NCBI GenBank assembly: GCA_963807645.1
Contig: CAWECO010000005.1
Span: 97,216 to 161,215, forward strand
Source of the DNA: an uncultured Gemmatimonadales bacterium
GTDB taxonomy: Bacteria > Gemmatimonadota > Gemmatimonadetes > Palauibacterales > Palauibacteraceae
Direction: 5' to 3'
DNA: 64,000 nt
This document shows, one piece after another, positions 236 through 59,300 of the stretch. The position numbers and the translations under genes are program-made. The notes beneath the pieces were generated by a model, which searched no databases, was not told the DNA's origin, and saw only the letters and a list, made by a program, of their open reading frames with translations. The number at the start of each line of letters is the position of its first letter. The first letter of the stretch is position 1.

Positions 236-1697
236 GTGAGGCGACGACGGACGCGAAACTCTCTCGGAGGCTTCATCTTGGGCACGCACGTCAGCTTCCT
301 GGACCAGGTCAACCGCAGCTTCGATCGAGCCGCCACGATCTCCGGTCACGATCCCCGGCTCCTGGACCAGATCAAGGAGTGCAACAGCGTCTATCGGGTC
401 ACGTTTCCGGTAAAGCGGGATGACGGATCGATCGAGGTCGTGCGGGCCTGGAGGGCCGAACACAGCCATCACAAGCTTCCGACCAAGGGCGGCATTCGCT
501 ACAGCACGACGGTCAACGAAGACGAGGTCATGGCTCTGGCGGCCCTCATGACGTTCAAGTGCGCGATCGTGGACGTGCCGTTCGGGGGGGCCAAGGGCGG
601 CATCAAGATCGACCGCCGGAACTACTCGCCCGGCGAGCTGGAGAGAATCACTCGGCGGTACACCTTCGAACTGGTGAAGAAGATGTTCATCGGACCGGGA
701 GTGGACGTTCCCGCCCCGGACTACGGGACCGGGCCGACGGAGATGGCATGGATCGTGGATACCTACAAGTCGCTCACCGGTGGCGGCGAACTCAACGGGG
801 AAGCCTGCGTCACGGGCAAGCCGATTGCCCAGGGCGGCATCGGCGGTCGGCTCGAAGCGACGGGCCGCGGCGTGTATCTCGGCGTACGGGAGGCCTGCGA
901 CATCGAGGAGGACATGCGGGCCCTGGGACTGTCCACGGGGCCTCGAAGGTAAGCGAGTGGTCGTCCAGGGACTGGGCAACGTCGGGTACCACGCCGCCAA
1001 CTTCCTGCAACAGGACGGAGCCGTCCTGGTGGGCCTGGCCGAGTACGAGGGGGCTATCGCGAATCCGGCCGGGCTCGACCTGGATGCCGTGGTCGCCCAC
1101 CGCCGCGAGACGGGCTCCATCCTCGGGTTCTCCGGCGCCACCGACATCCCGAAATCGCGCGAGGCACTGGAACTCGACTGCGACATCCTCGTCCCGGCCG
1201 CACTCGAGAACCAGATCGACGAGAACAACGCTCCTCGAATCCAGGCGCGAATCATCGCCGAAGCCGCGAACGGACCCACGACATCGGCCGCCGACGACAT
1301 ACTGGCCGACAAAGGGGTCGTCGTCCTGCCCGACCTGTACCTGAACGCCGGCGGGGTCACGGTCTCGTATTTCGAGTGGCTGAAGAACCTGTCTCACGTC
1401 CGGTTCGGACGCATGGAAAAGAGGTTCGACGAGAAGTCACACCGCCAGCTTCTCTCGGCAGTCGAGAACGCCACGGGAGCGAGCTTCTCGGATAGTGACC
1501 TGATCAGCTCGGTGGCGGGCGCCGACGAGTTGGACCTGGTGAACTCGGGACTGGAAGAGACGATGATCGACTCGTTCCACCAGATTCGCGAGGTCCAGAA
1601 GAGGAACGGCGGGGATCTCGACATGCGCACGGCAGCCTTCGTGAACTCGATCGACAAGATCGTGGTGTGCTACGAGGAGCTGGGCATCTTTCCCTGA
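236..1697 (+). CDS. gdhA: NAD(P)-dependent glutamate dehydrogenase (Glu/Leu/Phe/Val dehydrogenase family); split over two frames by a 1-nt indel near 940-955
   Basis: Frame 2 carries KGGIRYS...FGGAKGGI...[14 protein letters not shown] (catalytic N-domain). Frame 3 carries [17 protein letters not shown]...[13 protein letters not shown] (NAD domain). Junction lies at ALGLST|GLEGKRV in a GGGG run. Start is GTG at 236; the 5' end may extend further. Confidence 0.8.
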
Positions 1698-1719
1698 TCG
1701 CAGGGTATTCCGGACGCGA

Positions 1720-2541
1720 TCAGAACCGGAAGCTGAACGTGACCCACCGGGCCGGCGAAACGGCCTGCAGGTCAGGCCCAAGGCGTTGGTCCCCGAACCA
1801 CCTCCAGACGGTGGTCGAGGACAGGTATCCCAGGACGCTCCCCGCCAGTACGTCGGACAGCCAGTGCTTGTCAGCGTACAGGCGGCTCCACCCAGTGATT
1901 CCGGCCAGCGAGAAGAAAGCCACGTAGGCCCACCCCTGGTCGATCTGCCTGGCCACGATGTTCGAGATTCCAAAGGCGATCCAGGCGTGCCCCGAGATGA
2001 ACGAGGCCCGGTCGTTGGCAGTGGTGAACGGCTTGAAGCTGAAGTGGCCTTCTCCAAGCTCCGGACGCGCCCGACCGGCGATCATCCTTGCCGGCTGCTG
2101 CACGAGGCCCACGAGAAGCAGGACGTCCATCATCATCATGCCCGTGTCCCGAACCCCATCAGAGGAGAAGGCGGCGCCGGCGCCGTAGGTCAACAGGCTC
2201 GCCGGTACCGCGACATAGGGTGTCCCATACCAGAACCCCACGCGCTCCAGGACGTCGCCGACGTTGCCGCGCGAACCCTGAATCGACGTCCGAAGTTCTT
2301 CCTCGAATATCGTCGAGGCCGCGACTCCGCCGGTAATCAGGCCGGCCGTCACCCAATCACCGGAGTCCCAACGGCCGGGAGCGCTGAGGGTATGCGTGAA
2401 CGCATCCCACACTTCCTCCATGTCGGAGGAAAAGCTGCGGTCCTGAGCGATCGCCCATTGCGCCCCGAGTGGTTGCGGCGGGACGAGGAAAGCCACGCAA
2501 AGCAGCGGGACCGTCGCGCGCCTCAAAACGCGAACGACCAT
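1720..2541 (-). CDS. PAP2-superfamily membrane phosphatase (secreted/membrane, N-terminal signal peptide)
   Basis: PAP2 motifs present: ...FISGHAW (PSGH) and SRLYADKHWLSDV (SRx5Hx3D). Likely start is ATG at 2541 (MVVRVLRRATVPLLCVAFLVPPQPLGAQ), which overlaps the upstream gene stop by 19 nt. Confidence 0.7.
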   Translation of the reverse strand: MVVRVLRRATVPLLCVAFLVPPQPLGAQWAIAQDRSFSSDMEEVWDAFTHTLSAPGRWDSGDWVTAGLITGGVAASTIFEEELRTSIQGSRGNVGDVLERVGFWYGTPYVAVPASLLTYGAGAAFSSDGVRDTGMMMMDVLLLVGLVQQPARMIAGRARPELGEGHFSFKPFTTANDRASFISGHAWIAFGISNIVARQIDQGWAYVAFFSLAGITGWSRLYADKHWLSDVLAGSVLGYLSSTTVWRWFGDQRLGPDLQAVSPARWVTFSFRF

Positions 2542-5084
2542 TCGAGGTACAGCGTCGTCGTCTCGTCGCTGAAGCCGGCTTCCAGGGAAATGATGTTCAT
2601 CGTGCCCAGAAGCCCCCACCACAGGCCGCCACCGAAGCCCCAGTGAGCCGAGCCGGGCGAATCCCCGTCGACCCACACGCGGCCCACGTCCGCAAAGCCG
2701 AGCAGGCCCCACATGGAGGGCACGAGCAATTGCCCATCCATCACGTGAAGACGAAACTCGGCCGATCCGTACACCGACGCGTCGCCGGCGAATCGGCCGG
2801 CGCGCCATCCGCGCAGCGTCTCCGGGCCACCGACGAAGGCCGCGTCGTACCACGGGTAATCACCCCATATCTTCTTCCCGCCGATACGGGCCGCCCCGTG
2901 GGTCGCGTCCTTGAGAAGCGGAATCTGCAGGTAGCCCCTTAACTCTCCCCCCAGCCACCCGTACGGCTCCACCAGGTCCATCCAGTCCGGGTAGTAACGC
3001 CCCTGGGCCGTCAACGCGGCCCCGGTGAGTCTGGGGATCTCCCCCGTCCAGTGAATCCGGATGTTACGGCGGGAATCCCAGTCGAAGCGCGCAAAAGCGC
3101 CAGTCTGCCAGGTGTCATCGACTCCATACAAACCGGGAAGCTGGTTGATGAAACTCTCGGGATCGTCATCGGTGCGTGAGTAGCTGATGACGGGCCCAAC
3201 CGCGAATCCGGTCGAATTCCCCGGAAACGAACCGATGGCGAGTTCCAGGCCCGAGGCGTTTCGGTGCACCTTGGCCGAGTTGCGGTCAACCTCAGGTGAG
3301 TCATTTCCGTACCCGTAGAAATTCAGCACGTCGAAGCTGCTCGAGTAGAGTTCACCCATCACGAAGGCGCGCGAGTTCTCGAATCGAAAGTCGCCGTCCA
3401 ATCGGATCTCGTACTTGAGGGCCGTCGAAATAGCCCCGAAAACGCCGACTTCCGAGGCGTACGGCTCCTTCCGGAATCCGTAGTCGAACCAGGTCTTGCC
3501 CGCGCCGAGCTTGAACCCGTAGTCGGAGGTCAATCCGATCGTGGCCCGGGGCAGGCTCCAGCGACCCCAGTCGCGATGCGGAGGATCCATCGGGTCTGGA
3601 ATCTCGTCCGAGTTCGGGTAATCACGAGTGTTCAAAGCCGCGGATCGCTGACCGGTGATGCGGAAATCGCCGTCCACGTCGTACACGCTCACGCCCCTCG
3701 TGTCGGTCTCGAAGTGCACGTGGTCGTCTCCCCGGCCTCCTATCAAGCGCACCTTGATCGGCAGTCGGGAGGCTCCCCGGATCGTCACTCTATCACCGCC
3801 GCCGCCCAGATAGACCCGTACCTCCTTCGTCTCGTCGCGTCGAAACGTACGCCGAAAGTACGGCTCTGCGCCCTGAGCGCCGACGACAACCTCGATCGCG
3901 CCGTTCGCGTCGCCCGTGATCCGCACCTCTTCCGCTTCGAAGGTGGCGTGTATGTCCACTTCGCGGGACATCAGCAGGTAGAACCGGTTCGCCGCATCAC
4001 CCAGGGACACCCGGCGGATTTCGAGCTTCTCGCCAATCCACTCCGCGTCGAGGTCGTAGTACTGCCTCGGAAGGCGACGAAGCGCTGCGTCCACGACGTC
4101 GTCGGTCAGCACGGAAGTCAGATAGGCGGCCGTCGAATCGAACGCCGACCGATTGAGGTCGGCCAGGAACCGGCGGTCCACGAAGCGGGCGTTCCAGTGC
4201 AGGCTCAGTGGATCGTAGGATGACCCGAAGCCGGTCAGCTGGGGCACGAAGACCTGTGCTGCGTGGGGAAGGACGCCGTCCAGCCTTGAGAAGGCCTGGT
4301 CGCGGTCGAGAGGAATCGGATACCACAGGCGAGAATCGTCGTGATCGTAGGCCGCCCAGCGCCACTGGCCCGGATGGCGGTCCCAATCGCCCACGTAGAA
4401 GTCCAGGAGCCGAGCCTTGAGGAACTCCTTCGAGTCCACCCGATCCGCGGCCGAATTCAGTAGTCGGTCGACCAGTGTCTGGGTTCCCACGACCTCGCGC
4501 GGAGGCCCCATCGACATCAGGTCCGAAAGGCCCTCGTCCGCTGCTTCCTCGATCATGCCAGGAACTCCGCGAAATTCCTCTCGAAATTCGCCCAGACCGG
4601 GCTCGTCGGCGAAGGTGACGAGCTTGGGAGCCGGGTGAGGAATCCCGGCGGCCGTGGCCAGCGGCGATACGATCATCTCGCCAAGCGGGTGCTGCGAGCT
4701 GATCTGGTCGCGCAGAACGTCCATGGCGACGGAGTTCCGGAGAACCGGTGGAAGCACCGCGGAGGGTTCCTTGTCCAGTGACCGGAAATAGTACTGCCGT
4801 CCGTCGACTCCCTGCAGGCGGAGGGTGCGGCTCTGCAGGCCTCCCGTCGTGCCGGCGGGGGTTACACCTCCCGTGAACTCGGCACAATCCAGCACCTCTG
4901 CCTGAATCGAAGTGGTCCACGCGTCGCGGTAGTGGTCCCCCCACCAGAAGCGCCACCAGCCACCGGCTTCGTACTGGGCGCCCGGGATCACTTCGACCGA
5001 ATCGGTGCCGGTGGTCGGAACCTGAGCGGACAGCACGACGGGGAACGACAGAGCAAGGAAGATCGTGCAGGCAAGGCGTTTCAT
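2523..5084 (-). CDS. Large outer-membrane protein, C-terminal Omp85/BamA-like beta-barrel (ends ...EWSFAF); ~500-aa N-terminal domain of unknown function
   Basis: Signal peptide MKRLACTIFLALSFPVVLSAQ begins at ATG 5084. C-terminal region VGGPETLRGWRAGRFAGDASVYGSAEFR resembles the surface-antigen D15 family; terminal aromatic Phe. The ORF is 853 aa with no frame breaks. Confidence 0.55.
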   Translation of the reverse strand: MKRLACTIFLALSFPVVLSAQVPTTGTDSVEVIPGAQYEAGGWWRFWWGDHYRDAWTTSIQAEVLDCAEFTGGVTPAGTTGGLQSRTLRLQGVDGRQYYFRSLDKEPSAVLPPVLRNSVAMDVLRDQISSQHPLGEMIVSPLATAAGIPHPAPKLVTFADEPGLGEFREEFRGVPGMIEEAADEGLSDLMSMGPPREVVGTQTLVDRLLNSAADRVDSKEFLKARLLDFYVGDWDRHPGQWRWAAYDHDDSRLWYPIPLDRDQAFSRLDGVLPHAAQVFVPQLTGFGSSYDPLSLHWNARFVDRRFLADLNRSAFDSTAAYLTSVLTDDVVDAALRRLPRQYYDLDAEWIGEKLEIRRVSLGDAANRFYLLMSREVDIHATFEAEEVRITGDANGAIEVVVGAQGAEPYFRRTFRRDETKEVRVYLGGGGDRVTIRGASRLPIKVRLIGGRGDDHVHFETDTRGVSVYDVDGDFRITGQRSAALNTRDYPNSDEIPDPMDPPHRDWGRWSLPRATIGLTSDYGFKLGAGKTWFDYGFRKEPYASEVGVFGAISTALKYEIRLDGDFRFENSRAFVMGELYSSSFDVLNFYGYGNDSPEVDRNSAKVHRNASGLELAIGSFPGNSTGFAVGPVISYSRTDDDPESFINQLPGLYGVDDTWQTGAFARFDWDSRRNIRIHWTGEIPRLTGAALTAQGRYYPDWMDLVEPYGWLGGELRGYLQIPLLKDATHGAARIGGKKIWGDYPWYDAAFVGGPETLRGWRAGRFAGDASVYGSAEFRLHVMDGQLLVPSMWGLLGFADVGRVWVDGDSPGSAHWGFGGGLWWGLLGTMNIISLEAGFSDETTTLYLEWSFAF

Positions 5085-5390
5085 CGGACAGCCGCCTCCA
5101 GTGGATCGACTCTCCGCGAAAACCACTGCAACGCCCGGGGGGGCGGGACGATCAGTAGCGGGCGCAGACGCCGGAACCGATCGAATGTGTGGGAATTCCA
5201 CTGTTAGAGTGCTGTTTTTGTTAAAGTTGCGCCAGTGCAGGGCAGCGCTGTTCCGTCTCCTCCGTCCGTAGAGATGAACGAGGATCACCTTTGAGTACCG
5301 GGTTGGAGTGATTAGAGTGGGAAGGTCTGTCCCGAACGGCTGTGGAAATACGCATCCTCGAGGGGACATCAACTTCTCTGGAGGTCTTAC

Positions 5391-7061
5391 ATGCGATACG
5401 GGATCGTATTTTCCCTGGCGCTCCTCGCCGTGAGCTGCGGCGGCGAGACCGCGGAGCGCGCCGGACAGACCGATGACGCGCCAGTCGCCGAAGCCAACCC
5501 CACGGACGCGGACGGCTCGAGTCTCGGCACGGTCGTCGTCGCCGGAACGTGCTCCGGCGCGGCGCAGGCGGACCTGGAGAGGGGCCTGGCCTTGCTGCAC
5601 AGCATGACCTACGAGGAGGCGGCCCGGGCATTCGATGCCGCGACGGAGGCGGACCCGAACTGTGCAATGGGCTACTGGGGACAGGCCATGACCTTCGTAC
5701 ACCCCCTGTGGTCCGACCCTCCATCCGAGCAGGCGTTTGAACGGGGACGCGAGCTATTGGTCTCCGCGCGGGAACATGCTGCCACGGGCCAGGAACTGGC
5801 TTACATCGAGGCCCTCGCGGCTTACTACGATGCGGGTCGGTCGGGGTCCGAGAAGCCGAACCTCGTGGCCTTTGAGGCGGGGTGGCGCGATTTCTACGAC
5901 GCCTACCCGGAGGACCCCGAGGGCGCCGCATTCTACGCGCTCGCCCAACTCGCCACCGTGGATCCGGCGGATAAGACCTACAGCAAGCAGCGGCAGGCAG
6001 GCGCTCTCGCCGAGCAGGTGCTCGCGAGTGTGCCGGATCATCCGGGGGCTCACCACTACATCATCCACGCCTACGACAATCCTGAACTGTCATCGGCAGC
6101 GGTGGACGTGGCCCGAAACTACGGCGGGGTGGCCCCGGAGGTCCCGCACGCCCTGCACATGCCCACCCACACGTTTACGCGCCTGGGACTGTGGCAGGAG
6201 TCGATTGAATGGAACCGGCGGTCGGCCGACGCCGCCCTGAAGCACCCGATCGGCGAGGCCAAGTCGCTGCACTACTTCCACGCCCTGGATTACCTGGCCT
6301 ACGCTTACCTGCAGGGCGCCGAAGATGGCCGAGCCGCCGCGGTCCTCGCCGAGCTGCAGGATGTCGAGCCACCCTATCAGCCTCACCTGGCCAGCGCGTA
6401 TACGTTCGCCGCGGTCCCGGCCCGGCTGACGCTCGAGAGGCACTTGTGGGACGCCGCCGCGGATCTCGAACCGCGCTCCCCTTCCGATTACCCATGGGAC
6501 ACGGCTGCCTCGTCCGAGGCGATCACGTACTTCGCCCGCGCACTGGGGGCTGCTCGCAGCGGCCGTTTCGAACAGGCTCGCTCGGATCTGGCGACCCTCT
6601 CCGGATTGCTGGCGAAGGTCGCGGCCGCCAGTCCATACTGGGGGACGCAAGTCGAGATACAGCGGCTTACGGCTCTGGCCTGGCTCCAGTACGAAGAAGG
6701 CGACGGGGAGAGCGGACTCGAGACCATGCAGAAGGCCGCTGACATGGAGGCGGGCACCGAAAAGCACCCGGTTACGCCCGGCGAAGTGCTACCCGCCCGT
6801 GAACTTCTGGCGGACATGTACATGGAGCTCGGCCAGTTCAAGGAGGCCCTGGCTGCCTACGAGGCGGCTATCAACCGCAGTCCCAACCGATTCAACAGCC
6901 TGTACGGAGCCGGGATGGCGGCAACGAAGACAGGCGAATTGACAAAGGCGGCGGAGTATTTCGACGCGTTGCTCGAGGTCACGAGTCATGCGGATACGAA
7001 CAGGCCACGTCTGGAAGAAGTACGCAGTATCGTCGACGCGCGCTCGCTCGAGAGCGCGTAG
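5391..7061 (+). CDS. TPR-repeat lipoprotein (hypothetical)
   Basis: Lipobox MRYGIVFSLALLAVSCGG. GGAGG lies 8 nt upstream of the ATG. TPR-like helical repeats occur in the C-terminal half (ELGQFKEALAAYEAAINRSPN...). Intact 556-aa ORF. Confidence 0.6.
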   Translation: MRYGIVFSLALLAVSCGGETAERAGQTDDAPVAEANPTDADGSSLGTVVVAGTCSGAAQADLERGLALLHSMTYEEAARAFDAATEADPNCAMGYWGQAMTFVHPLWSDPPSEQAFERGRELLVSAREHAATGQELAYIEALAAYYDAGRSGSEKPNLVAFEAGWRDFYDAYPEDPEGAAFYALAQLATVDPADKTYSKQRQAGALAEQVLASVPDHPGAHHYIIHAYDNPELSSAAVDVARNYGGVAPEVPHALHMPTHTFTRLGLWQESIEWNRRSADAALKHPIGEAKSLHYFHALDYLAYAYLQGAEDGRAAAVLAELQDVEPPYQPHLASAYTFAAVPARLTLERHLWDAAADLEPRSPSDYPWDTAASSEAITYFARALGAARSGRFEQARSDLATLSGLLAKVAAASPYWGTQVEIQRLTALAWLQYEEGDGESGLETMQKAADMEAGTEKHPVTPGEVLPARELLADMYMELGQFKEALAAYEAAINRSPNRFNSLYGAGMAATKTGELTKAAEYFDALLEVTSHADTNRPRLEEVRSIVDARSLESA

Positions 7062-7101
7062 TCACGACAGGCTGGAACCGTATCAGGCGCCCTGATGCAA
7101 C

Positions 7102-7126
7102 GAAGCCCCTCCGCGGAGGGGCTTCG
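7102..7126. terminator. Bidirectional intrinsic terminator hairpin between convergent genes
   Basis: GAAGCCCCTCC-gcg-GGAGGGGCTTC, an 11-bp perfect stem. A second small IR ATCAGGcgcCCTGAT sits at 7082-7096. Confidence 0.5.
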
Positions 7127-7147
7127 TGCATCTACTTCACCGTCATC

Positions 7148-8886
7148 CTACAACTTCCCTGCCCGCTTCAACGCCCTCCGCTTTTCCTCGTTCTCCCGCC
7201 ACGGCTTCCGCTCGAAGTAGCTTCGCGTCTCCGCCAGCACCTGCGGCGACAGCAGCACGAGGGCGATGAGGTTCGGCACGATCACTACGGCCAGGAAGAG
7301 ATCGCCCAGGTTCCAGATCACCGCGAGTGGCAGGACCGCGCCCACGAAGTGCATCGTCACGAACGCCATCTTGTACGGAAGCACGGCCGCCGAACCGAAC
7401 AGGTAGTTGGCGCATCGATCCCCGTAGTAGCTCCAGGAGATTGCCGTGGAGAGGGCGAACAAGAGAACCGCCAGCACCACGATCGTCCCGCCCCAGTCGC
7501 CGAGCGGCGAGAGACCGATCCGGAATCCCGCCTGGGTGAGCGGCGCCCCGCTCTCGTAGGCCAGCCCGTACAGAGTCGTGTGTCTGTTCCCGTCCGTGGC
7601 CTCGGCGATGGCGTCCACCGGCCGGATCGTTCCAGAGAACCGGACGGTCATGTCCGCGATCGATGAACAGCTCTTCGACGTGCACGTCGTGCCACGCGAG
7701 TAGCGGAGCGTCCAGGGTCTGCGCGTGCCGTCCGTCCGCGATCACGAGCTCCGCGGGGGCCTCGATACCCGCCCGCACGCCCTCGGCGTCCACGCTCACC
7801 CACGTCAGGTCGCCTCCATCCAGGACGATCGGCGTCGGCAGTCGCTCGTTCCAAACGCCAGTGGTCAGAATCACGAGCCCGGTCATGGTGCAGATGACGA
7901 GCGTGTCGATGAACGGCTCGAGGAGCGCCACCACGCCCTCGGACACCGGCTCGTCGGTCTTGGCCGCGGCGTGCGCGATGGGGGCGGAGCCCTGCCCTGC
8001 CTCGTTGGAGAACAGGCCGCGCCGCACGCCCCACATCATGGTCACGAGGAACGCGCCGACACCCGTGCCGGCGACCCCGGCGGTCGGATTGAAGGCCTCG
8101 CGGAAGATCAGCTCGAACGCGGGAATCACGGCCCCGATATTGAGCCCGATGATCGAGCAGAGCGCCGAACACGTAGAGGGCCGCCATGGCCGGTGCCAGG
8201 ATCGCCGTGACCTTGCCGATCCGCGTGATCCCACCAAGGATCACAGCCGCGACGACGGTCGACGTGATCACGCCGGTGGCCCAGGCCGGGATGCCGAACG
8301 TGGTTCGCATCGTGTCGGCGACCGTGTTCGCCTGGATGGCGTTTCCGGTGAGAAAGGCGGTGAGCCCGAGGAGGACGGCAAAGAGAATGGCCATCCACTT
8401 CCAATTCGGGCCGAGACCGCGCTCGATGTAGTACATGGGACCGCCGGAGACCGTCCCTTCCCAGGCGTGTCCGTGCGTTTCCTCGATCACACGGTACTTC
8501 TGCGCCAGCGTGACCTCGGTGTACTTGGTCGCCATTCCGAGCGCCGCCGTGACCCACATCCAGAACAGCGCGCCAGGACCGCCCCAGTGGATGGCGATCG
8601 CGACGCCGGCGATGTTGCCGATCCCCACCGTCGCCGACAGCGCCGTCGTGAGAGCCTGGAAGTGCGAGACGTCTCCCGGCTCATCGGGGTCGTCGTATGC
8701 CCCGGTCGTGACCTTGAATCCGTGCCCGAGGCGCCGGAGCTGGATGAAGCCGAGACGAAGGGTCAGGAAGACGCCCGTGCCGAGGAGGAGGATCACCATG
8801 TAGGGGATCGTCTCTCCCCCTACGGTGAGTCCCATCTCCACGATGTACCGATTGCCGACCTCGGACAGCCACTGGAAGAATTCCAT
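7148..8886 (-). CDS. Na+/alanine-glycine symporter (AGCS family), split into three frames by two 1-nt indels (~8166 and ~7650-7700)
   Basis: N-part: IGNIAGVAIAIHWGGPGALFWMW. Middle part: GVRRGLFSNEAGQGSAPIAHAAAKTDEPVSEGVVALLEPFIDT. C-part: LFALSTAISWSYYGDRCANYLFG. First junction reads ...YVFGALL|IIGLNIGAV. Confidence 0.75.
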
Positions 8887-9118
8887 GCACGCCCCGTCAG
8901 GTTTCGTTGATCTTCACGGCGCCTCTGCCGAATCGAGATCGGAGAAGATAGGGAGGGTGCATGGGTTCGTGCGAATCGGAGGGTGCCTGACCGTTGGCGA
9001 TGCTCGCCTCTTTCCTCGATGAGGCGTGCTCGACTTGCTTCGCGGAGCGCAAACGGTAGATCTTCAGTAATGGCACCTCGCTCCCGGGCTGCCCCCTCCC
9101 AGGCGAGCCATCCCCTTT

Positions 9119-9991
9119 GTGCGGACAGGCTACGTGTCAACTCGGGCAGCATGGTCGCGCGCCAGCATCCGGAGTCTGGCCCCCCTCCTGTTGTGGTCAT
9201 TCGTCCCCGGGACGCTCCTGGCGCAGTCCGGCTGGATCTTCGGGGGCGATGCCGTGGTCCGAAACACCTACCTGTGGCGGGGCGTGACACGTAGCAGCGC
9301 CTGGGTTCTGCAACCCGACCTCTTCCTCGCTGGATCGCAGGACCGCTCGAACATCACGGGCGGGTGGTGGAGCACGATCGATCTTGGGTCGGTCGATCCG
9401 GGTGACCCGACGAGCGCCGGACTGGGGCAGACATGGTTCGGCCAGAACGACCTGTGGCTCGAAGTTGCGGTGCGTTCGGGGACAGTCGACTTCACCGTAG
9501 GGGTCACCCGGTACCAGTTTGCGGATCGGTCCTTCGGCCAATCCGCTGACGCGGTGAACACCACCGAACTCTACGCCACGGCTGGTCTCTCTGCGGGTCC
9601 GCTCGTGCCCCGGATAGCTCTGTGGGTCGACGTGAGCCGGGTGCGAGGCGCGTACTTCGAGACGAGTCTGGACCTGAGGGTACCGGTTCTCCCTTCCTAC
9701 GAACCCGTCATCGCGGCATACCTGAGCGCCCTCGCCGGCTGGAGCGCCGGACAGGAGATCAACCGCCAGAGCCCGGACGAAGCGGCATATTTCGGCGACG
9801 CTGGCCTGACGCATCTCGATTTCGGCCTCGACGTAGCTGTCGGCCGCAATCAGCGGTACGTCACTCTCGAACTGCACGTCCTCGCCGCGCAGGACGGAGG
9901 AGCCCGAGCGGAGCCCGGCACTTCCAGAAACGCTTCCTGGTGGCTGGGGCTGGGATTCAGTGATTCCGTCGTGCTGGGAGCCCTGTGGTGA
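9119..9991 (+). CDS. Secreted/outer-membrane beta-barrel-like protein (hypothetical); first gene of the ceramidase-kinase operon
   Basis: Signal peptide ...IRSLAPLLLWSFVPGTLLAQS. Sequence has alternating hydrophobic periodicity and ends ...VVLGALW. Its stop overlaps the next gene start (9985). The antisense ORF 9197..10060 is Arg-rich noise. Confidence 0.45.
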   Translation: MRTGYVSTRAAWSRASIRSLAPLLLWSFVPGTLLAQSGWIFGGDAVVRNTYLWRGVTRSSAWVLQPDLFLAGSQDRSNITGGWWSTIDLGSVDPGDPTSAGLGQTWFGQNDLWLEVAVRSGTVDFTVGVTRYQFADRSFGQSADAVNTTELYATAGLSAGPLVPRIALWVDVSRVRGAYFETSLDLRVPVLPSYEPVIAAYLSALAGWSAGQEINRQSPDEAAYFGDAGLTHLDFGLDVAVGRNQRYVTLELHVLAAQDGGARAEPGTSRNASWWLGLGFSDSVVLGALW

Positions 9992-12129
9992 CGGCCAGAG
10001 CCGGACGGTGCGGCGCTTCGTGGATCCCTGCCTTCCTGGCGATCGCCGGTCCGGCAACACTGTGCAGTTGTGCCTCCACGGACATCACGACCCCGGCCGC
10101 GAGATCTGCGGAACCCACGGCATCAGAGCTTCCAGGCCTCAAGGTCGGATTCGGTCGCGCTGACATCACACCTCCGCCTGGGCTCGGGCTCAGTGACTAT
10201 GGCCCAGCAGGCGGGGTAGCTCGCGGGCATCGGCAGCGGCTCTACGCCCGGGCGATGATCCTGGAGGATGGGCGCGGTGAGAGGATCGCCTGGGTCACCG
10301 TCGACCTCGCCCAGCCGTCGTTTCTGTTGCACCGGGAAGCAGCCGAGCGGGTCGTCGCCGAAACCGGGATCGGAGCTGACAGACTGGTCCTCACAGCCAC
10401 CCATACCCATGCAGGCCCCGGTCATTTCTTCTCCAGTCGCAGCTACAACCAATTCGCACCGGGCATCCCGGGATTCGACCCCGCCGTCGTCGAGTTCCTG
10501 GCGGACCGTGTGGCGATGGCGATTCGAGAGGCATCCCAGGGGCTGACGCGGGCTGCGGCCGGGTGGGTACAGGCTCAGGTATGGGGGCTTACCAGGAATC
10601 GGAGTCTCGAGGCGCATGCGAGGAACCCGGCCGTAGAGGGCCGGCCGACACCGCCGCCTGGTCTGACCATGGCGCAAGGGGCCGTCGATCCGACATGGAC
10701 CATGCTTCGGGTGGACACGATTTCTTCGCAGGGAGACACGGTACCGGCCGGCGCGCTGAGCATCTTCGCGTACCATCCGACAGGCAATCCTCCCGCCAAT
10801 GACCTTTACGACTCTGACATCTCGGGTCTCGTGGAACGCGGGTTGGAAAGGCACATGGACGCGCTGGCCCAAGCCGGCACTCGATTCGTCCCGGCGACCG
10901 TTCACCTGGTGGCGAACGGCGCGGAGGGAGACGTAGTTCTGGAAGGCAGCCTCGATCACGACTGTGAGCGGCCTGCACAGAGAAGAGGTGTTCGGCCCGG
11001 AGGCCCTCGTACTCCCAAGCCTCTCGATGAATGGACATCTCTGGCTGATGACTCCGGATCGGAGTGCGTCGGCAAGGCCCGCGCGTTCATCAACACGACC
11101 GGAGACGCCCTCGCGGCCCAAGCGATCCGAATCTTCAGTGACGCCGGGCGTGACCTTCGTTCCGACCTGCAACTCAGGAGGTCCTTCAGGACTGTTCGCC
11201 TCACCGGTCCCGAGGCCTCGACCGACTTGTGCCCCGAGCCTCAGGTAGGCGCCGGAGCGTCAGCCGGGTCGGAAGGCAGCCAGAGCAACCTGAAGGACTG
11301 GAAGGTCCTCGGTCTGTTCCCACTGCACGCGGAAGAAGGTGCGGTCGACACGACGAGCGGTGGCTGCCAGGCTCCGAAACGCAGGCTGCCGTGGATCCTG
11401 CGCATCGGGATGGGAAACCTCCACTTCCCTGCCGAGGCGCAGCTCATGGTCGTGCAGATCGGAGACCTGGCGGCCGCGGCAGTCCCCCTCGAGGTGACGA
11501 CCGAAGTGGGGTTCCGAATCCGGGATGCCATGCTACGTACTTCATTGGAAGACGCTCTGGGCATCCGAGCGGTAGCTGTGGTTGGACTGGCCAACGGGTA
11601 CATGCAATACGTAGCTACGCGGGAAGAGTACCAGGCCCAGCACTACGAGGGCGGATCCACTCTCTATGGACCCGGATTCGCCGAGTTCCTTCAGGCCGAA
11701 ATCGTAGAACTGACGGCAAGATTGAGCGACGGAGGATATGCGCGGGTAGAGCCCATTTCGGGTAACCCCGGTTCGCAACGCAAGATTTTCCCGCGTACCA
11801 GAGACCCTCGCCCGGAGCGCCTGATCGTCACACGGACGAGTTGCGGGCGTGATACGGTAACGGTGCGTTGGCTCGACGCACCCCCGGGCTCTCTGCTCCC
11901 TTCCGACGGTCCGATGCTCGAACTGCGCCGATCGCGGACGGGGGAGAGGACGACCGTCACCTGGGACGACGATCGTTTCGTAGAGGTGAGGGGAATCGAA
12001 TCGGTGGACGGTCGGGGGTATCTGTGGGAAGCCCGCTGGACTCCACCTGGAGGCACCCGGGGCGACTACTCGGTCACGTTTCTTCGCTGGCCACGCGACG
12101 CGAGCGACAGGGGGTTCCGATGTCCGTGA
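9985..12129 (+). CDS. Neutral/alkaline ceramidase family lipoprotein
   Basis: Lipobox ...ATLCSCAS. N-terminal block GFGRADITPPPGLGLSDYGPAGGVARGHRQRLYARAMILEDG...VLTATHTHAGPGHFF matches the neutral ceramidase N-domain. At 714 aa the size fits. No frame breaks. Confidence 0.65.
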   Translation: MVTARAGRCGASWIPAFLAIAGPATLCSCASTDITTPAARSAEPTASELPGLKVGFGRADITPPPGLGLSDYGPAGGVARGHRQRLYARAMILEDGRGERIAWVTVDLAQPSFLLHREAAERVVAETGIGADRLVLTATHTHAGPGHFFSSRSYNQFAPGIPGFDPAVVEFLADRVAMAIREASQGLTRAAAGWVQAQVWGLTRNRSLEAHARNPAVEGRPTPPPGLTMAQGAVDPTWTMLRVDTISSQGDTVPAGALSIFAYHPTGNPPANDLYDSDISGLVERGLERHMDALAQAGTRFVPATVHLVANGAEGDVVLEGSLDHDCERPAQRRGVRPGGPRTPKPLDEWTSLADDSGSECVGKARAFINTTGDALAAQAIRIFSDAGRDLRSDLQLRRSFRTVRLTGPEASTDLCPEPQVGAGASAGSEGSQSNLKDWKVLGLFPLHAEEGAVDTTSGGCQAPKRRLPWILRIGMGNLHFPAEAQLMVVQIGDLAAAAVPLEVTTEVGFRIRDAMLRTSLEDALGIRAVAVVGLANGYMQYVATREEYQAQHYEGGSTLYGPGFAEFLQAEIVELTARLSDGGYARVEPISGNPGSQRKIFPRTRDPRPERLIVTRTSCGRDTVTVRWLDAPPGSLLPSDGPMLELRRSRTGERTTVTWDDDRFVEVRGIESVDGRGYLWEARWTPPGGTRGDYSVTFLRWPRDASDRGFRCP

Positions 12130-13763
12130 CGGACGAGGTCTTCATGCACCCCTTGAGCGATCCAGTGTCGGGCACGTCAGGGTCTTTACCGCTGACCGCC
12201 GATCGCTCATTTGGCGAAGAGGAGAGGGAGCTTCTCACGGGTCGGTGCCGTCTCGTTTTCGGCCTCGGCGTGGCGATCAGCCTGACCTTGATCCTTCTCT
12301 CCCGTGGCTTCATCAACAGGCCGCAACTCGCCGCCAACGCGCTGGAAAGCCTCGAAACCTGGTTCGACGCGGGACACCTCCTGTCCTTCGCCCTCGCGTT
12401 CGGCTCTCTGTTCATTGGAACGCCGAGCGTACGACGCCTCCAGGTAACCGCGTTCGCCGTACTCGCGGTCAACATTGTTCTGGTCGTATTCAGCATGGGC
12501 GTGATCAGACCTGACTATCCACCCGAACTCGCGATCGCGCTGCTGCTCTTCATCCCCGCCGCGGTGATTCCGTGGCGAGTCGGCTACCAGGTGAGCCTGG
12601 GCACGATAGGGGTCGCGACACCGGCCCTCGCTCAGGTGTTCAGTTACGCGTTCATGCCGCAGGCGAGGGAATACTGGGCCGGGATAGGAGGACAGGCGGC
12701 CTTTCAGAACCACCTCGTCGTCATGGGCGTAGGTCTTCTCATCCTGGCAGCCACTTCGGTCCTGGTCACACGGACGCTGTACAGCCTCCGCCGCAAGGCT
12801 CACAGGGCGAGGCAGCTCGGCAACTACACTATCGAACGGAAGATGGGAAGAGGCGGCATGGGAGAGGTGTTCGTGGCCCGCCACGCCCGAATGTGCCGAC
12901 CGAGTGCGGTGAAGGTCCTGCGAGTCTCGGGAAGCCTGGACCTGGACGCCCTCGCCCGCTTCGAGCGGGAGGTACAGCTCTCCTCCAGTCTCACGCATCC
13001 CAACACGATCACCATCTTCGACTTCGGCCGCGCGGGTCAGAACACGTTCTACTACGCAATGGAATACCTGGAAGGGCTAGACCTCCAGCGCCTCGTGAAG
13101 CGCTTCGGGCCGCTCGGCGCCGAACGAACGATTTTTCTGCTGACTCAGGTGTGTGGCTCCCTGGCGGAAGCCCACGGCCGTCAGATAGTGCATCGAGACA
13201 TGAAACCCGCGAACATCTTCGTGACGGAGCGGGGCGGACTGTTCGACTACGTGAAGGTGCTGGATTTCGGTCTCGCCAAGCACGTGGACTCGGGCGATGG
13301 GGAAGGTGTGACCAAGGCAGGGCTTATCCTCGGAACGCCGGAGTACATGGCCCCGGAAGCTATACGAGACGAGGGGCGGGTGGACACTCGCGCCGACCTT
13401 TACGGTTTGGGGGCGGTCGCCTATTTCCTGCTGACCGGTCAGCCGCCGTTTCAGTGCCGGACCCAGCTGCAAACCCTGGTTGACCAGGTGCGGAAACCTC
13501 CCGTACCACCCTCCGAGGTCACGGAAATCGAGATCCCGGTCGAACTCGAGTCGATCGTCCTGAAGTGCCTGGAGAAGTGGCCCGAAGAGCGCTATCAGAA
13601 GGTGGAAGAGATAGACGCGGCCCTGCGATCCGTACCCCTGGAGGAAACCTGGAATCTAGACCAGGCGAGAGAGTGGTGGACCCTGCATTCCGAGGTCGCT
13701 CGCCCCGTCCTGTATGAATCGGCACCCGGTAAGGGAGTTCCCGCCGCACTCCCCGGTCGATAA
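12120..13763 (+). CDS. Polytopic membrane Hanks-type Ser/Thr protein kinase
   Basis: ATG 12120 overlaps the ceramidase stop by 10 nt. N-terminal ~270 aa contains 6-7 predicted TM helices. Kinase motifs: GRGGMGEVFVARH, AVK, HRDMKPANIF, LDFGLAK, GTPEYMAPE. Confidence 0.8.
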   Translation: MSVTDEVFMHPLSDPVSGTSGSLPLTADRSFGEEERELLTGRCRLVFGLGVAISLTLILLSRGFINRPQLAANALESLETWFDAGHLLSFALAFGSLFIGTPSVRRLQVTAFAVLAVNIVLVVFSMGVIRPDYPPELAIALLLFIPAAVIPWRVGYQVSLGTIGVATPALAQVFSYAFMPQAREYWAGIGGQAAFQNHLVVMGVGLLILAATSVLVTRTLYSLRRKAHRARQLGNYTIERKMGRGGMGEVFVARHARMCRPSAVKVLRVSGSLDLDALARFEREVQLSSSLTHPNTITIFDFGRAGQNTFYYAMEYLEGLDLQRLVKRFGPLGAERTIFLLTQVCGSLAEAHGRQIVHRDMKPANIFVTERGGLFDYVKVLDFGLAKHVDSGDGEGVTKAGLILGTPEYMAPEAIRDEGRVDTRADLYGLGAVAYFLLTGQPPFQCRTQLQTLVDQVRKPPVPPSEVTEIEIPVELESIVLKCLEKWPEERYQKVEEIDAALRSVPLEETWNLDQAREWWTLHSEVARPVLYESAPGKGVPAALPGR

Positions 13764-13776
13764 GCACTCCAGGCGC

Positions 13777-16304: not shown

Positions 16305-16319
16305 AGCAGCCGGTCGAAC

Positions 16320-17663
16320 TTACGGACCGGTTGAGCCAATCTCCGCTCCCGTCTTGAACGTGGGATGCAGCACGATCTCTCCATCGCCGTCGGTCACGCT
16401 CACCTCGAAGGCCGTGGTCCGGTCGAGATCCGAGGAGGGAGGAACGCGCACGATCAGCGGCACCGTCCGGGATTCCGCTGTGTTCAACTCGACCGGCTGA
16501 GAGATCACCTCGGCGTCGCCGAGGCCGGATACGACAATGTCGTACTCCACCGGCAGCGGCGACGGATCCTTGTTCGTGATCTTTACGAGGAACGTGTTCC
16601 GGGTGGATCCGTCCGTGTCCATCGTATATAGCGAACCCGGGGCCCGGTTCACGGTCGCCTCGAATGGGACGCGGCGGGCGACGAGGACGCCGATAGCCAC
16701 GAGAATCGATACGAGCAGCGTCCCATACACGAACGTTCGCGGTCGCCACCTGCGAGGCTTGCGGCCCTGCTCTTCGGCGACCGATCCGTAGGCTACCAGC
16801 GTCGGGTGCCCCAGCTGGTCCATGACGCTCGTGCACGCGTCGATACAGCGCGCGCACTGGATGCACTCGAGCTGGAACCCGTCGCGGATGTCTATGCCCT
16901 GCGGGCACACGGCCACGCACTTGTTGCAGTCTATGCACCGCCCGTCCTGGGCGGCCTTCTTGCCGGCTTCACGCGGCTCGCCCCGCTCCGTGCTGTACGT
17001 GATGATCAGGGACTCGTCGTCCGCGAGGGCGCTCTGGAAGCGTGCGTACGGACAGACGTAGTTGCAGAACTGCTCCCGGAACCACGTGAAGTCCCAGAAC
17101 CAGAACAGGGCGATGATCGCCGTCAGCGAGTACTCGACCGGTCCCGCCCGACCCGTCCACAGCTCCCGCGCCCCGGCGAAGATGCTCATCATGGCCATGG
17201 CCAGAAACACCGAAACGGCCAGGAACACCGACCACTTGGCGGCTTTTCGCCATGCCCGGTCGAACGTCCAGCCCCTGGCGTCCCGCCGCTTCCGCGTCAG
17301 CCGGTCGCCCTCGATCCACAGCTCGACGGGCCGGATCCACGATTCGAGGAACACAGTCTGCGGACACGCGTAGCCGCACCAGATGCGCCCGAAAATGGCC
17401 GTGAAAAAGAACAGCGAGAACGCCGCGAACCAGAGGAGGAGCAGCAGTATGATCGAGTCAGACGGCGTGAAGATATAGCCGAAGTGGTAGAACCGGCGCG
17501 CCGGGAGGTCGATGAGGATCGCGGGATAGCCGTTGATCATGATCCACGGCGCCGCCAGCAGCAGCAGGTGCAGGCCGAGGAACGTCCAGCGCCGGATCGT
17601 CATGAACCGGCCCTTGATGGACTGCGGATACACCCAGTCCCGTGTCTGTGAGAAACCGAGCAC
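16320..17663 (-). CDS. ccoG: cbb3 oxidase accessory 4Fe-4S ferredoxin-type protein CcoG
   Basis: Motifs CGYACPQTVF; CIDCNKCVAVCPQGIDIRDG; CIQCARCIDAC; multiple TM helices. Intact 447-aa ORF. Confidence 0.8.
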   Translation of the reverse strand: MLGFSQTRDWVYPQSIKGRFMTIRRWTFLGLHLLLLAAPWIMINGYPAILIDLPARRFYHFGYIFTPSDSIILLLLLWFAAFSLFFFTAIFGRIWCGYACPQTVFLESWIRPVELWIEGDRLTRKRRDARGWTFDRAWRKAAKWSVFLAVSVFLAMAMMSIFAGARELWTGRAGPVEYSLTAIIALFWFWDFTWFREQFCNYVCPYARFQSALADDESLIITYSTERGEPREAGKKAAQDGRCIDCNKCVAVCPQGIDIRDGFQLECIQCARCIDACTSVMDQLGHPTLVAYGSVAEEQGRKPRRWRPRTFVYGTLLVSILVAIGVLVARRVPFEATVNRAPGSLYTMDTDGSTRNTFLVKITNKDPSPLPVEYDIVVSGLGDAEVISQPVELNTAESRTVPLIVRVPPSSDLDRTTAFEVSVTDGDGEIVLHPTFKTGAEIGSTGP

Positions 17664-44865: not shown

Positions 44866-45114
44866 ATGTGGAACAAGCCGCTCAAGCTCGCAGTCGCGAC
44901 CCTTCTCCTCGCAGCGCTCGGCGCATGCGATGGCAGTTCCCTGGCGGGGCCGGAGGAACATGAGGTAGAGGCGCCTGCCTATCGGACGGCCTGCATGGCC
45001 GGTGGAGACGTGGCCCAGCGAGCCGGATGTCCGGAGGACACCTGGTCGAACACGGGCGATTCGTTCGATCCGTGGGAGGAGGACCTGAGTCCGCGGGAGA
45101 AGTGGCCAAATTGA
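44866..45114 (+). CDS. Small secreted lipoprotein (82 aa), hypothetical
   Basis: Strong RBS AAGGAGG 6 nt upstream. Lipobox LLLAALGAC. Acidic C-terminus. Confidence 0.45.
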   Translation: MWNKPLKLAVATLLLAALGACDGSSLAGPEEHEVEAPAYRTACMAGGDVAQRAGCPEDTWSNTGDSFDPWEEDLSPREKWPN

Positions 45115-45140
45115 GCCGAAGACGGCGTGTCCGGCGGATC

Positions 45141-47605: not shown

Positions 47606-49902
<2,297 letters not shown>

Positions 49903-52532: not shown

Positions 52533-52607
<75 letters not shown>

Positions 52608-52640
52608 CTCGGTCCCCGATCGCCGTCTTCACGGCTGCCC

Positions 52641-55246: not shown

Positions 55247-56276
55247 ATGACCAACGCGTGCCAATTCCTTCGGCAACGAGGCTCCGGAATCGCCGTTGCG
55301 GCCGCCGTGGCGGGCCTCGCCGGCCTCGCGGGGTGCGGTCAGTCGTCGGCCATGGGAGAGGCTAACTCGCTGATCGTCGTCGCCGATGATGCTCTGTGGG
55401 ACCAGGTCGAAGAGGATACCTACGAGGCTCTCGAGCGCACGGTGTACACGACTCGCGATGAGAAGATCTTCAACGTCACGCAGACGAGCCCCGATTCGCC
55501 CGAGATCAACCAGCTCCTGCTCTGGCGTCAGATCCTGGTGTTCGGTGGGCCCGACGACCCGGGCGTTCAGATGATCGCCGAGAAGGTCGGTCGTGCCTCG
55601 GTCGAACCGGGTGAGGTCGTGCAGGCCTCCAACGTTTGGGCGCGTGGGCAGCTGGCCACGGCCGTGGTTCTCGAGCCCGGGCGGGAAGCCGAAAGCGTGG
55701 CGAGAGCATCTGCCGGGTTTGTCCGAGCATCTCGAGCAGCAGTTCCGCGACTACGTTCTCAGGCGGATGTTCGTCAGCGGCGTCGACACGGCCACGAGCG
55801 AGTTCCTGCGGGACCAGTTCGGCTTCACGCTCGAGATCCCGCGCGTGTACCAGACGGTGGATCGCGACGAGGGCGTAGTCCTGATCCGGAACGACAACCC
55901 GGACCCGAGCGAACTGATACGGTCCATTCTTATCCAGCGCGGTGAGGCCGTCGATTCGATCTCACCGTCGATGGTCTACGTGTGGCGCGCCACGATCGAC
56001 GACACCCACTACAACGTCCCGCAGGACTTCGACGTGATGGTGGGCACGGGCCGGAGTTTCGATCTCAACGGGTCGGAAGCGGTCGAGGCCCGTGGAACCT
56101 GGAAAGACCGGGCGGCCTATCCGGCCGCGGGCCCGTTCGTGGCCCGCGCCGTCCGCTGTGGAGAACACGTGATCTACCTCGATGCGTGGCTCTACTCGCC
56201 GAATCCGCGTCGCAGCAAGTACGAATACATGACGCAGCTGGAGGAGATCCTGGATTCCTTCACGTGCGTCCGCTGA
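55247..56276 (+). CDS. DUF4837-like lipoprotein; 1-nt indel near 55700
   Basis: Lipobox MTNACQFLRQRGSGIAVAAAVAGLAGLAGCG. NSLIVVADDALWDQVEED...LLWRQILVFGG. C-terminal half in a second frame (…FGFTLEIPRVYQTVDRDEGVVLIRNDNPDP…). Family assignment is tentative. Confidence 0.45.
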
Positions 56277-56317
56277 TCGAATGAACGGAACCCTGGAAGA
56301 AAGCGCCTGACCGCCCG

Positions 56318-59300
56318 ATGTCTTTCGTTCACCTGCACTGCCATAGCGAGTATTCGCTCCTCGACGGAGCCAACCGGATCGACGACCTGATCGGCCAGGC
56401 CGTCTCCATGGGCATGCCCGCGCTCGCCATCACCGATCACGGCAATCTTTACGGGGCCTGGGAGTTCCAGGAGAAGGCCAGGAAGAAGAAGATCAAGCCG
56501 ATCCTCGGCTTCGAGGCCTACGTCGCGTACGGCGATCGACGGCAGAAGGAGAGGCCCAAGGACGCCCCGGCCGAGTACGCACATCTCGTGCTCCTGGCGC
56601 GCGATCTCACGGGCTACCGGAACCTTGTCCGGCTCACATCCCGCGGATACACGGAGGGCTTCTACCGGAAACCCCGACTCGACCACGAGATCCTCGCGGA
56701 GCACAACGAGGGCGTCATCGTCCTCAGCGCGTGTCTCTCGGGCGAAGTGGCGAAGAACCTCCAGTTCGGACGATACGATCGGGCCAAAGAGGCGGCGGAG
56801 TTCTATGCCCGCACGTTTCCCGATCGCTATTACCTCGAGGTTCAGGACCACGGCATCAAGGGCCAGGACGAGGTCAACGCTGGGGTCTTTCAGCTCGCGG
56901 ACGAGCTCGGACTCCCGGTGGTGCTCACCAACGATGCGCACTACCTGCGCCGGGAAGACGCCGACATGCACGACACGCTGCTGTGCATCGGCACCGGGGT
57001 CCTCAAGAGCGATCCGAACCGCCTCTCGTTCGACGGCGAAGAGTCCTACTTCAAGTCGGCCGACGAAATGGCCGAGTTGTTCCCCGATCGCCCCGAATTG
57101 CTGTCACGAACACGTGGACATCGCGGAGACCTGCGGGATCCAGTTCGAAAAGAAGCACCATCTGCCGGGCTTCCCCGTTCCGCCGGAGTTCGCCGACGAC
57201 ATGGCGCACCTCCGTCACCTGACGGAGGAGGGCGCGCGCGAACGCTACGGAGATCCGCTGCCCGACGACGTGCGCGAGCGCCTGGAGTACGAGCTGGGGG
57301 TGATCGCGAAGACGGGCTACGCCGGCTACTTCCTGATCACGTGGGACTTCTGCCGGGCCGCCCGCGAGCTGGACATCCCCGTCGGTCCCGGTCGAGGCTC
57401 GGCGGCCGGCTCGATCGTGGCCTACGCGCTCCGGATCACGGACGTGGACCCGCTCGAGTTCGACCTCCTGTTCGAGCGCTTTCTCAACCCCGAGCGCGTG
57501 TCGATGCCCGACATCGACATCGACTTCTGCTACGAAGGTCGCGGCCGGATCATCGAATACGTGCGCGAGAAGTACGGCGCGGACTCCGTCGGCCAGATCA
57601 TCACGTTCGGGACCATGCAGGCCCGGGCCGCCGTGCGTGATGTCGGACGCGTCCTGGAATTCACACCGGCCGAGCAGGACAAGCTGGCCAAGCTTATCCC
57701 CAATACGCCCGGATTCTCGCTGTCGATCGGCGAGGCGGTGGAGAAGGTCAAGGAACTGAAGGACCTCTACAAGAGCGACCCGCGGGCCCACCAGCTCCTG
57801 GACTACGGCAAGGCCATCGAGGGCCTTTCGCGCCATGCTTCGGTGCACGCGGCCGGCGTCGTGATCGCCCCCGGACCGCTGGACGAGTACGTGCCGGTAT
57901 GCCGGGACACGAAGAACGGCGGCCAGGTCATCACCCAGTACGACATGGTGGCACTCGAGAAGGCCGGGATGCTCAAGATGGATTTCCTCGGCCTCCGCAC
58001 GCTCACCGTGATCCACGACGCCGAGGGAGCCATCCACCGGCGACACGGGGTGGATATCGACTGGGATGAAATCGGACGGGACGATCCCGACGTCTACGCG
58101 ATGCTCGCGACGGGGGGCACCCGCGGCGTGTTCCAGTTCGAGTCCTCGCTCGCCACCGAGAAGCTTCGCGCCATGCGGTGCGACCGGTTCGACGACCTGA
58201 TCGCGGTGAACGCCTTGATTCGTCCGGGGCCCCTGGACTCGGGCATGACGGACGTGTTCATCAAGCGCAAGAGGGGCTTCGAGCCGGTGGAGTATCCAGT
58301 CCCCGAGCTCGCGGAAGTGCTTGATACGACTTACGGCGTGATCACCTACCAGGAGCAGGTGATGCGCGTCGCCAACGTACTGGGCGGATTCTCGCTCGCC
58401 GAAGCCGACGTGCTCCGGAAGGCGGTCGGCAAGAAGGACGCCGCTCTCACCAAGAAGGTCCTGGATGATTTCCAGAAGCGCGCGATCGAGCGAGGGACCC
58501 CGAAGAGGAAGGCCGCCGAGATCGCCGACCTCATCCGGACGTTCGGCCGATACGGATTCAACAAGGCGCATTCGGTAGCCTACGCCATGATCTCGTACCG
58601 CACGGCGTGGCTCCGGAAGCACTACCCGGCCGAGTTCATGGCGGCGCTCCTCAGCTCCATCATCGACAATACGGACAAGGTCGTGCAGTACATCACCACC
58701 GCCCGGGCGATGGAGCTCGAAGTCCTGCCGCCGAGCGTCACGGAATCGCGGTACAAGTTCACGGTCGTGGACGATCGGCGGATTCGGTTCGGCCTGGGGG
58801 CCATCAAGGGGGTCGGAGAGTCGGCCATCCGGTCCATCACGGAGGCTCGTGAGGACCGACCGTTCGAATCGCTGTTCGACTTCTGCCAGCGGATCGACCT
58901 CCGACTCAACAACAAGCGTGTCCTCGAGTGCCTGATCTCGTCGGGGGCGCTGGACGAGTTCGGGGAGCGCGGCGCGATGAAAGCCGGACTCGAGACCGTT
59001 CTCTCCGAGGCGCAGCTCCGGCAACGCGAGCACGACACGGGGCAGGAGTCGCTGTTCGGTTCGGCCGACTCGGTTGAACGCCGGGACCCTCAGTTGCCGA
59101 GGACGGCACCCCTCACCGAGGCCGAGCGACTGAAAGACGAGAAGGCCGTTCTCGGATTCTACATCTCGGGTCACCCGCTGGAGCGCTACCGCGACCTGGT
59201 CGAGATGTTCGCCTTGGAAGCCAATACGGCGACGGTACCCGAATTCAGGGATCGGCGCGTGGAACTCGCGTGCGTGGTGACGTCGATGAACGTCAACGTC

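Follow-up and report, generated by a model that had tools for sequence, protein, structure and literature searches.

Apparent frameshifts in a Palauibacterales metagenome contig are probably consensus errors of assembly

We analysed a stretch of 64,000 nt (the window, to which all position numbers refer) of contig CAWECO010000005.1 from an uncultured bacterium of the Palauibacterales, in which 19 genes are interrupted by 36-37 frame-break events between positions 936 and 57107. Comparison with related sequences indicates that these breaks are probably errors in the consensus of a metagenome assembly and not mutations of the organism, a reading to which we assign a probability of roughly 0.9. 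The number of events agrees with the approximately 35 frame breaks listed in a preliminary description of the same DNA, which had offered two explanations, an unpolished long-read or metagenome-assembled genome (MAG) assembly with patchy coverage, or decay of acs, thiC, katG and the cbb3 oxidase genes. Every test that we ran supports the assembly explanation, with its homopolymer and patchy-coverage details in need of correction, while decay is contradicted by intact independent orthologues, by a lesion spectrum close to insertions only and by the lack of relaxed selection.

The events were counted from the reading frames, Pfam domains, open reading frames (ORFs) of relatives and alignments. 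Frames were tracked over the whole window with a codon-usage Viterbi path through all six frames, and at every place named in the preliminary description this path switches between frames of the same strand without an intervening gap; exact sites were then set by nucleotide alignments to relatives and conspecific contigs (Table 1; L-numbers are labels of the compared contigs or loci). The translations stitched across the breaks contain no stop codons. Pfam domains [ELFV_dehydrog, Na_Ala_symp, E1-E2_ATPase, COX1, FixO, Arylsulfotrans, Peptidase_S15, AMP-binding, ThiC_Rad_SAM and DUF4837] continue uninterrupted across junctions in gdhA, the AGCS symporter gene (two junctions), ccoI, ccoN, ccoO, the ASST-like gene, the CocE gene, acs, thiC (three junctions) and the DUF4837 gene, and the junctions of ABC-F, dnaE and katG separate domains that belong to one protein. 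Single intact ORFs of relatives correspond to two to four frames of the window for ThiC, Dcp, Acs, AGCS, TPR/TolB, DnaE, GdhA, DUF4837, CcoN, CcoI, ABC-F and ASST; for DnaE, ORFs of 1173 aa (L039) and 1152 aa (L045) match frame 2 and then frame 3 at 93-96% identity, and CocE homologues of 731 aa span 100% of the stitched window protein.

At the level of single genes the earlier counts needed some revision, with five events in the CocE gene where four had been given, and three in the outer-membrane barrel gene where two had been given. The junction between the TauE-like and SixA-like genes, for which at least one break had been claimed, resolves into +2 at 21468 and +1 at 21512, and the single break reported for dnaE is a +2/-1 pair at 57098-57107. 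Two events are additional to the earlier list, a +1 at 50086 in the gene of a 140-aa hypothetical protein and an uncertain event at 45114-45129. The deposited NCBI/ENA contig (310,752 bp), to which exact look-ups trace nine proteins of the window, already carries the frame breaks, which were not introduced later; the run-on TauE product of 291 aa is present there.

Independent contigs carry the broken genes in frame. Conspecific contigs from other samples were retrieved by exact look-up of small neighbouring proteins and through cluster members [L119, JGI 3300045962, 98.65% identical over window 2100-8982; L120, Logan SRR35386096, 98.74%, 1383-8118; L033, JGI, 98.2%, 15644-18881; L034 and L035, both Logan, 98.3% and 99.1%, around ccoO; L117, JGI, 94.8%, 18550-30130]. 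All 17 events covered by these contigs, at identities of 94.8-99.1%, are in frame there; they include those at 7657, 8154, 15161, 15313, 15890, 18716 (covered by several contigs), 20081, 21468, 21512, 26270, 27304, 28988, 29373, 29780, 29798 and 30071. Over 1-6.9 kb, the five contigs with at least 98% identity show gaps that are not multiples of three only at 7657, 8154, 15161, 15313, 15890 and 18716, and in every case the window has a single base more. In L117 the ccoN, TauE, SixA, ABC-F, ASST and CocE genes are intact, and the window has +1 or +2 at eleven further events.

For acs, thiC, dcp, katG, dnaE, gdhA, DUF4837 and TPR/TolB, the relatives found have 82-88% nucleotide identity, and up to ten of them per site are concordant. 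The comparison with orthologous loci that the preliminary description had proposed as a check thus leaves the window as the odd one out at the junctions. A scan of JGI metagenomes with a composite of six 60-aa segments near the gdhA, thiC, acs, katG, CocE and dnaE junctions turned up relatives with 75-87% nucleotide identity, none of them conspecific, and a ThiC search together with cluster members gave a best match of 95% amino-acid identity and no conspecific thiC or acs. L121, L125 and L126 are not conspecific or end short of a junction, and L032 (run ERR12040029, probably a related run), which is 99.84% identical to the window, spans no junction.

The nature of the lesions and the state of the broken genes agree with this comparison. 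Net insertions number 33 and net deletions 4 (39 bases inserted, 5 deleted), and all lesions are 1-2 nt in size. We found no nonsense codon in the repaired frames of the broken genes, and neither larger deletions nor insertion sequence (IS) elements; three stop-like triplets, flagged as nonsense codons in the alignments of ThiC and TPR/TolB, precede the true start codons. Bacterial pseudogenes are characterized by a deletion bias and by mixed lesions, and the spectrum in the window is the opposite of that pattern. In amino acids, the out-of-frame pieces still match conspecific proteins at 98-99.6% identity; for AGCS, compared with the 578-aa protein that is unbroken in L119, the three frame segments reach 99.4-99.6%, and the one between the two breaks 99.4%. 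At conspecific distance, the synonymous and non-synonymous differences number 169:45 in broken and 131:45 in intact genes, giving non-synonymous/synonymous ratios of 0.27 and 0.34, respectively, which indicates no relaxed selection. Even the genes hit three to five times give no sign of neutral drift, and AGCS has 23 synonymous and 3 non-synonymous differences. The breaks extend to an essential gene, dnaE, whose window copy is broken; six relatives have it as a single intact ORF.

If the breaks are consensus errors, the origin of the extra bases has to be explained, and we lean towards strain collapse as their main cause over plain read noise. Reads of co-occurring strains would have been collapsed into one consensus; wherever a substitution distinguishes two strains, both alleles may have been retained next to each other, which would read as a +1 insertion. 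A consensus that keeps both alleles would produce an excess of insertions, close doublets, no link to homopolymers and a higher density of events in variable genes such as CocE. We therefore looked for +1 events at which two different one-base deletions each restore the allele of a different relative, using the relatives as stand-ins for the co-assembled strains and a matched simulation of random insertions as reference. This two-allele pattern occurs in 6 of 22 testable events (7657, 18716, 20081, 28988, 29780 and 35829) against 1.5 expected (P = 0.002), and under stricter matching in 4 against 1.2 expected (P = 0.03). Mismatch density within 30 nt on either side of the events is 1.47 times the background [P = 0.0007; range 1.37-1.49 times, P = 0.0007-0.006], and the number of events per kb is related to conspecific divergence (Spearman rho = -0.76, P = 0.0005), events being denser where the sequence is more divergent. 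The CocE gene, with its five events, is 83.6% identical to L117, and its flanking genes are 97-99% identical. The excess of insertions at locally polymorphic sites points to collapsed strain variation rather than simply to patchy coverage.

A different origin within the same class of artefact, which we consider possible rather than probable, is that noisy long reads left random consensus errors, through low local depth or unpolished gap-fill, unrelated to strain variation. The excess of insertions and the size of 1-2 nt fit noisy single-molecule reads, gene-fragmenting indel errors are well known in long-read and MAG assemblies (PMC12007338), and 16 of the 22 testable events have no second allele among the available relatives. 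The spacing of the events is also near-random: for 37 events spread over 64 kb, the largest gap free of breaks should be 7.1 kb and measures 7.0 kb (P = 0.45); counts in 4-kb bins have a variance-to-mean ratio of 1.55 (P = 0.05), and the spacings a coefficient of variation of 1.25 (P = 0.04). Clustering beyond chance is thus weakly supported, and the distribution that the preliminary description called non-uniform is barely more clustered than chance would give. The long neighbouring genes are intact, as had been stated, and this is unremarkable given that the largest gap matches expectation; at 0.58 events per kb, intact neighbours of 2-2.5 kb are expected.

Random noise accounts less well for the six two-allele cases where 1.5 were expected, and for the tendency of events to fall where mismatches are frequent and in the genes that diverge most. 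It would also be expected to bring the homopolymer enrichment that is typical of nanopore consensus errors, and no such enrichment was found, with 3 of 14 exactly placed insertions lying in runs of at least three against a baseline of 12.6% (P = 0.25). Homopolymer-driven error was rejected on this ground, and the association of junctions with short homopolymers that had been suggested earlier is not supported; at the GGGG near 945, cited as one such junction, the extra base is a C at about 936 that precedes the GGGG and lies outside the run. Error blocks created by long-read gap-fill between clean short-read stretches were also rejected, because the near-random spacing and a largest clean gap equal to expectation give no fitting block structure. 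Collapse of strain variation remains the origin that we favour.

Several points weigh against our interpretation. The errors were deduced from comparisons of assembled sequences, and the source contig may be a long-read-type assembly, judging by its large size and by the Flye-style name of a different contig. The evidence for acs, thiC, katG, dnaE, gdhA and dcp comes from relatives of 82-88% nucleotide identity, and the conspecific contigs are themselves 1-5% divergent, which in principle leaves room for very recent real mutations of one strain. As to strain collapse, the two-allele test becomes borderline under the strictest matching (3 cases against 0.87 expected, P = 0.05), misalignment at gaps somewhat inflates the counts of neighbouring mismatches, and the correlation with divergence could also arise from the faster evolution of real pseudogenes, against which the ratio of synonymous to non-synonymous differences argues.

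In our view it is very unlikely that the frameshifts are real, which would mean that dozens of genes, including acs, thiC, katG and those of the cbb3 oxidase, were inactivated very recently in a Palauibacterales strain, either at an early stage of reductive evolution or because the lineage is a mutator. The deposited contig does contain the indels, and the contigs that lack them come from other samples and differ by 1-5%, so that strain-specific mutations retain a small chance. Approximately 37 frameshifts in 57 kb would nevertheless have had to accumulate with no nonsense codon, larger deletion or IS element among them, with an insertion excess (33:4) opposite to the known deletion bias of pseudogenes, with dnaE broken, and with no relaxation of selection in multiply hit genes such as AGCS (23:3, its out-of-frame piece being 99.4% identical); were the whole genome hit at this density, the majority of its genes would be non-functional. 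What mass pseudogenisation looks like is shown by host-restricted bacteria such as Mycobacterium leprae and Sodalis glossinidius, with stops, deletions, IS elements, a deletion bias, relaxed selection and intact replication genes. The window resembles these genomes in its many interrupted genes, metabolic genes included, but differs from them in lacking mixed lesions, deletion bias and relaxed selection, and in having its replication gene dnaE broken. More improbable still is a free-living marine Palauibacterales strain with dozens of very recent insertion-biased frameshifts (in dnaE, thiC, acs, katG and cbb3 genes) that survives as a transient mutator or by unusually tolerant decoding.

The idea that the breaks are decoded, the genes being functional through programmed or tolerated ribosomal frameshifting or transcriptional slippage, has a negligible chance. 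Programmed frameshifting is known in prfB and dnaX, and +1 frameshifting is widespread in Euplotes; programmed sites have slippery motifs and are conserved in orthologues. As in these systems, coding sequence flanks the interrupted frame on both sides of each break, and nothing further speaks for recoding; unlike in them, the sites in the window share no slippery motif or long homopolymer, the shifts are mixed (+1, +2 and -1), and no orthologue, even at 98-99% identity, shares any of the breaks. The absence of the breaks from conspecific orthologues effectively refutes recoding.

Consensus error in the window can be compared with errors described elsewhere. Watson and Warr are said to have reported in 2019 that long-read assemblies suffer from indel errors that fragment genes. 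The window resembles long-read and MAG assemblies with such errors in that many indels of 1-2 nt split conserved genes into adjacent ORFs, orthologues are intact and nonsense codons are missing, and also in the great length of its contig, given that the MAG comes from sediment; it departs from their usual form in that its errors show no link to homopolymers and, with few exceptions, add bases. In the collapsed PacBio assembly of Trypanosoma brucei Lister 427, nearby allelic variants gave rise to indel errors and apparent frameshifts (PMC8445201). The window is similar in that, at 6 of 22 testable events, the added base corresponds to the alternative allele, and in that the events lie in variable sequence, whereas the alleles in T. 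brucei belong to homologous chromosomes and those in the window would belong to co-occurring bacterial strains, the link here being statistical. A further case comes from a different related species, in which thiC of L124 (ENA ERZ25039600 contig_12262, 181,525 bp) is split into 294-aa and 298-aa parts by its own extra T at the equivalent of window position 35632, unlike the position of any thiC break in the window, suggesting that the fault lies with the data set as a whole.

If the genes are intact in the organism, the breaks are biologically unimportant and matter as a question of data quality. From the public MAG one would conclude that thiC, acs, katG, subunits of the cbb3 oxidase and even dnaE are absent, and protein databases already contain fragments of its genes, for example the run-on TauE. 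A role as cosmopolitan thiamine producers has been proposed for the Palauibacterales (PMC10469786), and a false loss of thiC in MAGs of this kind would distort the inference of thiamine producers. The two-allele signature suggests a cheap flag, needing no reads, for strain-collapse errors in metagenome consensus sequences.

Table 1. Frame-break events in the window, with the change relative to related sequences and the evidence for each
Gene	Position	Strand	Change in window	Evidence
gdhA	936	+	+1, C before GGGG	L047 GdhA ORF (497 aa) matches frame 2 then 3 at 936-940; ELFV_dehydrog spans
AGCS symporter	7657	-	+1, CG where relatives have C or G	L119 (98.65%), L120 (98.74%); two-allele pattern
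AGCS symporter	8154	-	+1	alignment to L119
ccoI (P-type ATPase)	15161	-	+1	L119
ccoI	15313	-	+1	L119
ccoI	15890	-	+1	L033 (98.2%) and L116
ccoO	18716	-	+1, GATTC-CG-TGAG	C in L033, G in L034/L035/L117; FixO spans
ccoN	20081	-	+1, AG	A in L116, G in L117; COX1 spans
TauE/DsbD_2 gene	21468-21469	+	+2, four codons upstream of stop	ORF 291 aa, 229 in relatives
SixA-like phosphatase, signal-peptide region	21512	+	+1	L117
ABC-F ATPase	26270	+	+1, between second ABC domain and C-terminal domain	L117, L041, L043; Pfam
ASST-like gene	27304	-	+1	L117; Pfam
CocE/NonD hydrolase	28988	-	+1, CTCG	CTG in L043, TCG in L117
CocE/NonD	29373	-	+1	alignments including L117
CocE/NonD	29780 and 29798	-	two +1, 18 nt apart	alignments
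CocE/NonD	30071	-	+1	alignments
dcp (peptidase M3)	31963	-	+1	L011, L006, L042
dcp	32089	-	+1	alignments
acs	33759	+	1 base missing	five relatives concordant
acs	34257	+	+1	alignments
acs	34611	+	+1, GGG to GGGG	alignments
thiC	35410	-	+1	alignments
thiC	35570	-	+1, CC to CCC	alignments
thiC	35829	-	+1, codon GAC+G	GAC/GAG/GAT in relatives; ThiC_Rad_SAM spans all three thiC junctions
outer-membrane barrel gene	37620-37930	+	-1 at ~37620-37625, +2 at 37741-37751, +2 at 37921-37930	L007/L011/L124 (intact 260-aa gene) concordant
TPR/TolB-like gene	43286	-	net +1	L028 643-aa ORF matches frames -1 then -2 at 43284-43286
small lipoprotein-like ORF	45114-45129	+	net -1 or -2, uncertain	poorly conserved gene; gaps differ between L028 and L126
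katG	49202-49214	+	net +2	L094, L093 and five more relatives
katG	49465	+	+1	alignments
katG	49594-49595	+	+2	relatives with one 750-codon ORF
140-aa conserved hypothetical, downstream of kefB	50086	-	+1	L121 protein matches frames -1 then -2
DUF4837 gene	55677-55702	+	+1	L039 398-aa ORF matches frame 2 then 3; Pfam
dnaE	57098-57107	+	+2 and -1 within 9 nt, net +1	six relatives concordant

The window has a G+C content of 65%. An exact look-up of its ADOP permease, which is intact, gave no contig, and a scan with this protein detected orthologues of 68-95% identity only in marine-sediment Gemmatimonadota MAGs, including Candidatus Benthicola marisminoris, whose genus lies within Candidatus Palauibacterales. 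In L012, a short-read MAG relative, a 4-nt gap at the equivalent of window position 39157 splits the ADOP permease into two ORFs.

Other differences between the window and its relatives were also noted. The Omp85 gene has at position 3910 an in-frame difference of 3 nt from both L119 and L120, which, unlike the frame breaks, looks like a natural codon indel. Intergenic differences of 1-4 nt from conspecific contigs lie at 24487, 26478 (C7 versus C6), 27970, 28012 and 36662, and in such non-coding DNA natural indels and errors are indistinguishable. The divergence of the CocE/NonD gene (28022-30213) from L117 suggests a recombined or hypervariable allele.

Positions 8982-13764 (4.8 kb, with an outer-membrane protein, a 714-aa ceramidase-like gene and a Ser/Thr kinase) are missing from L119, which is 98.6% identical to the window and in which AGCS directly abuts ccoS/ccoI; this segment is thus a strain-specific island, and it contains no frame breaks. 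The conspecific L122 lacks 606 nt (window 37568-38173) comprising most of the outer-membrane barrel gene, which is intact at 260 aa in the more distant L007, L011 and L124.

A thiamine pyrophosphate (TPP) riboswitch, sought as an independent structured target of errors in the 583-nt non-coding region upstream of thiC (36379-36961), was detected neither in the window nor in L122, even at E ≤ 1. L122 has at its positions 806-884 a long, near-perfect hairpin of approximately 80 nt; aligning the window there requires single-base gaps at two sites, 36906 and 36928. A lone tRNA-Ile(GAU) gene lies at 52534-52608 in a non-coding stretch of 680 nt, with no rRNA gene nearby.

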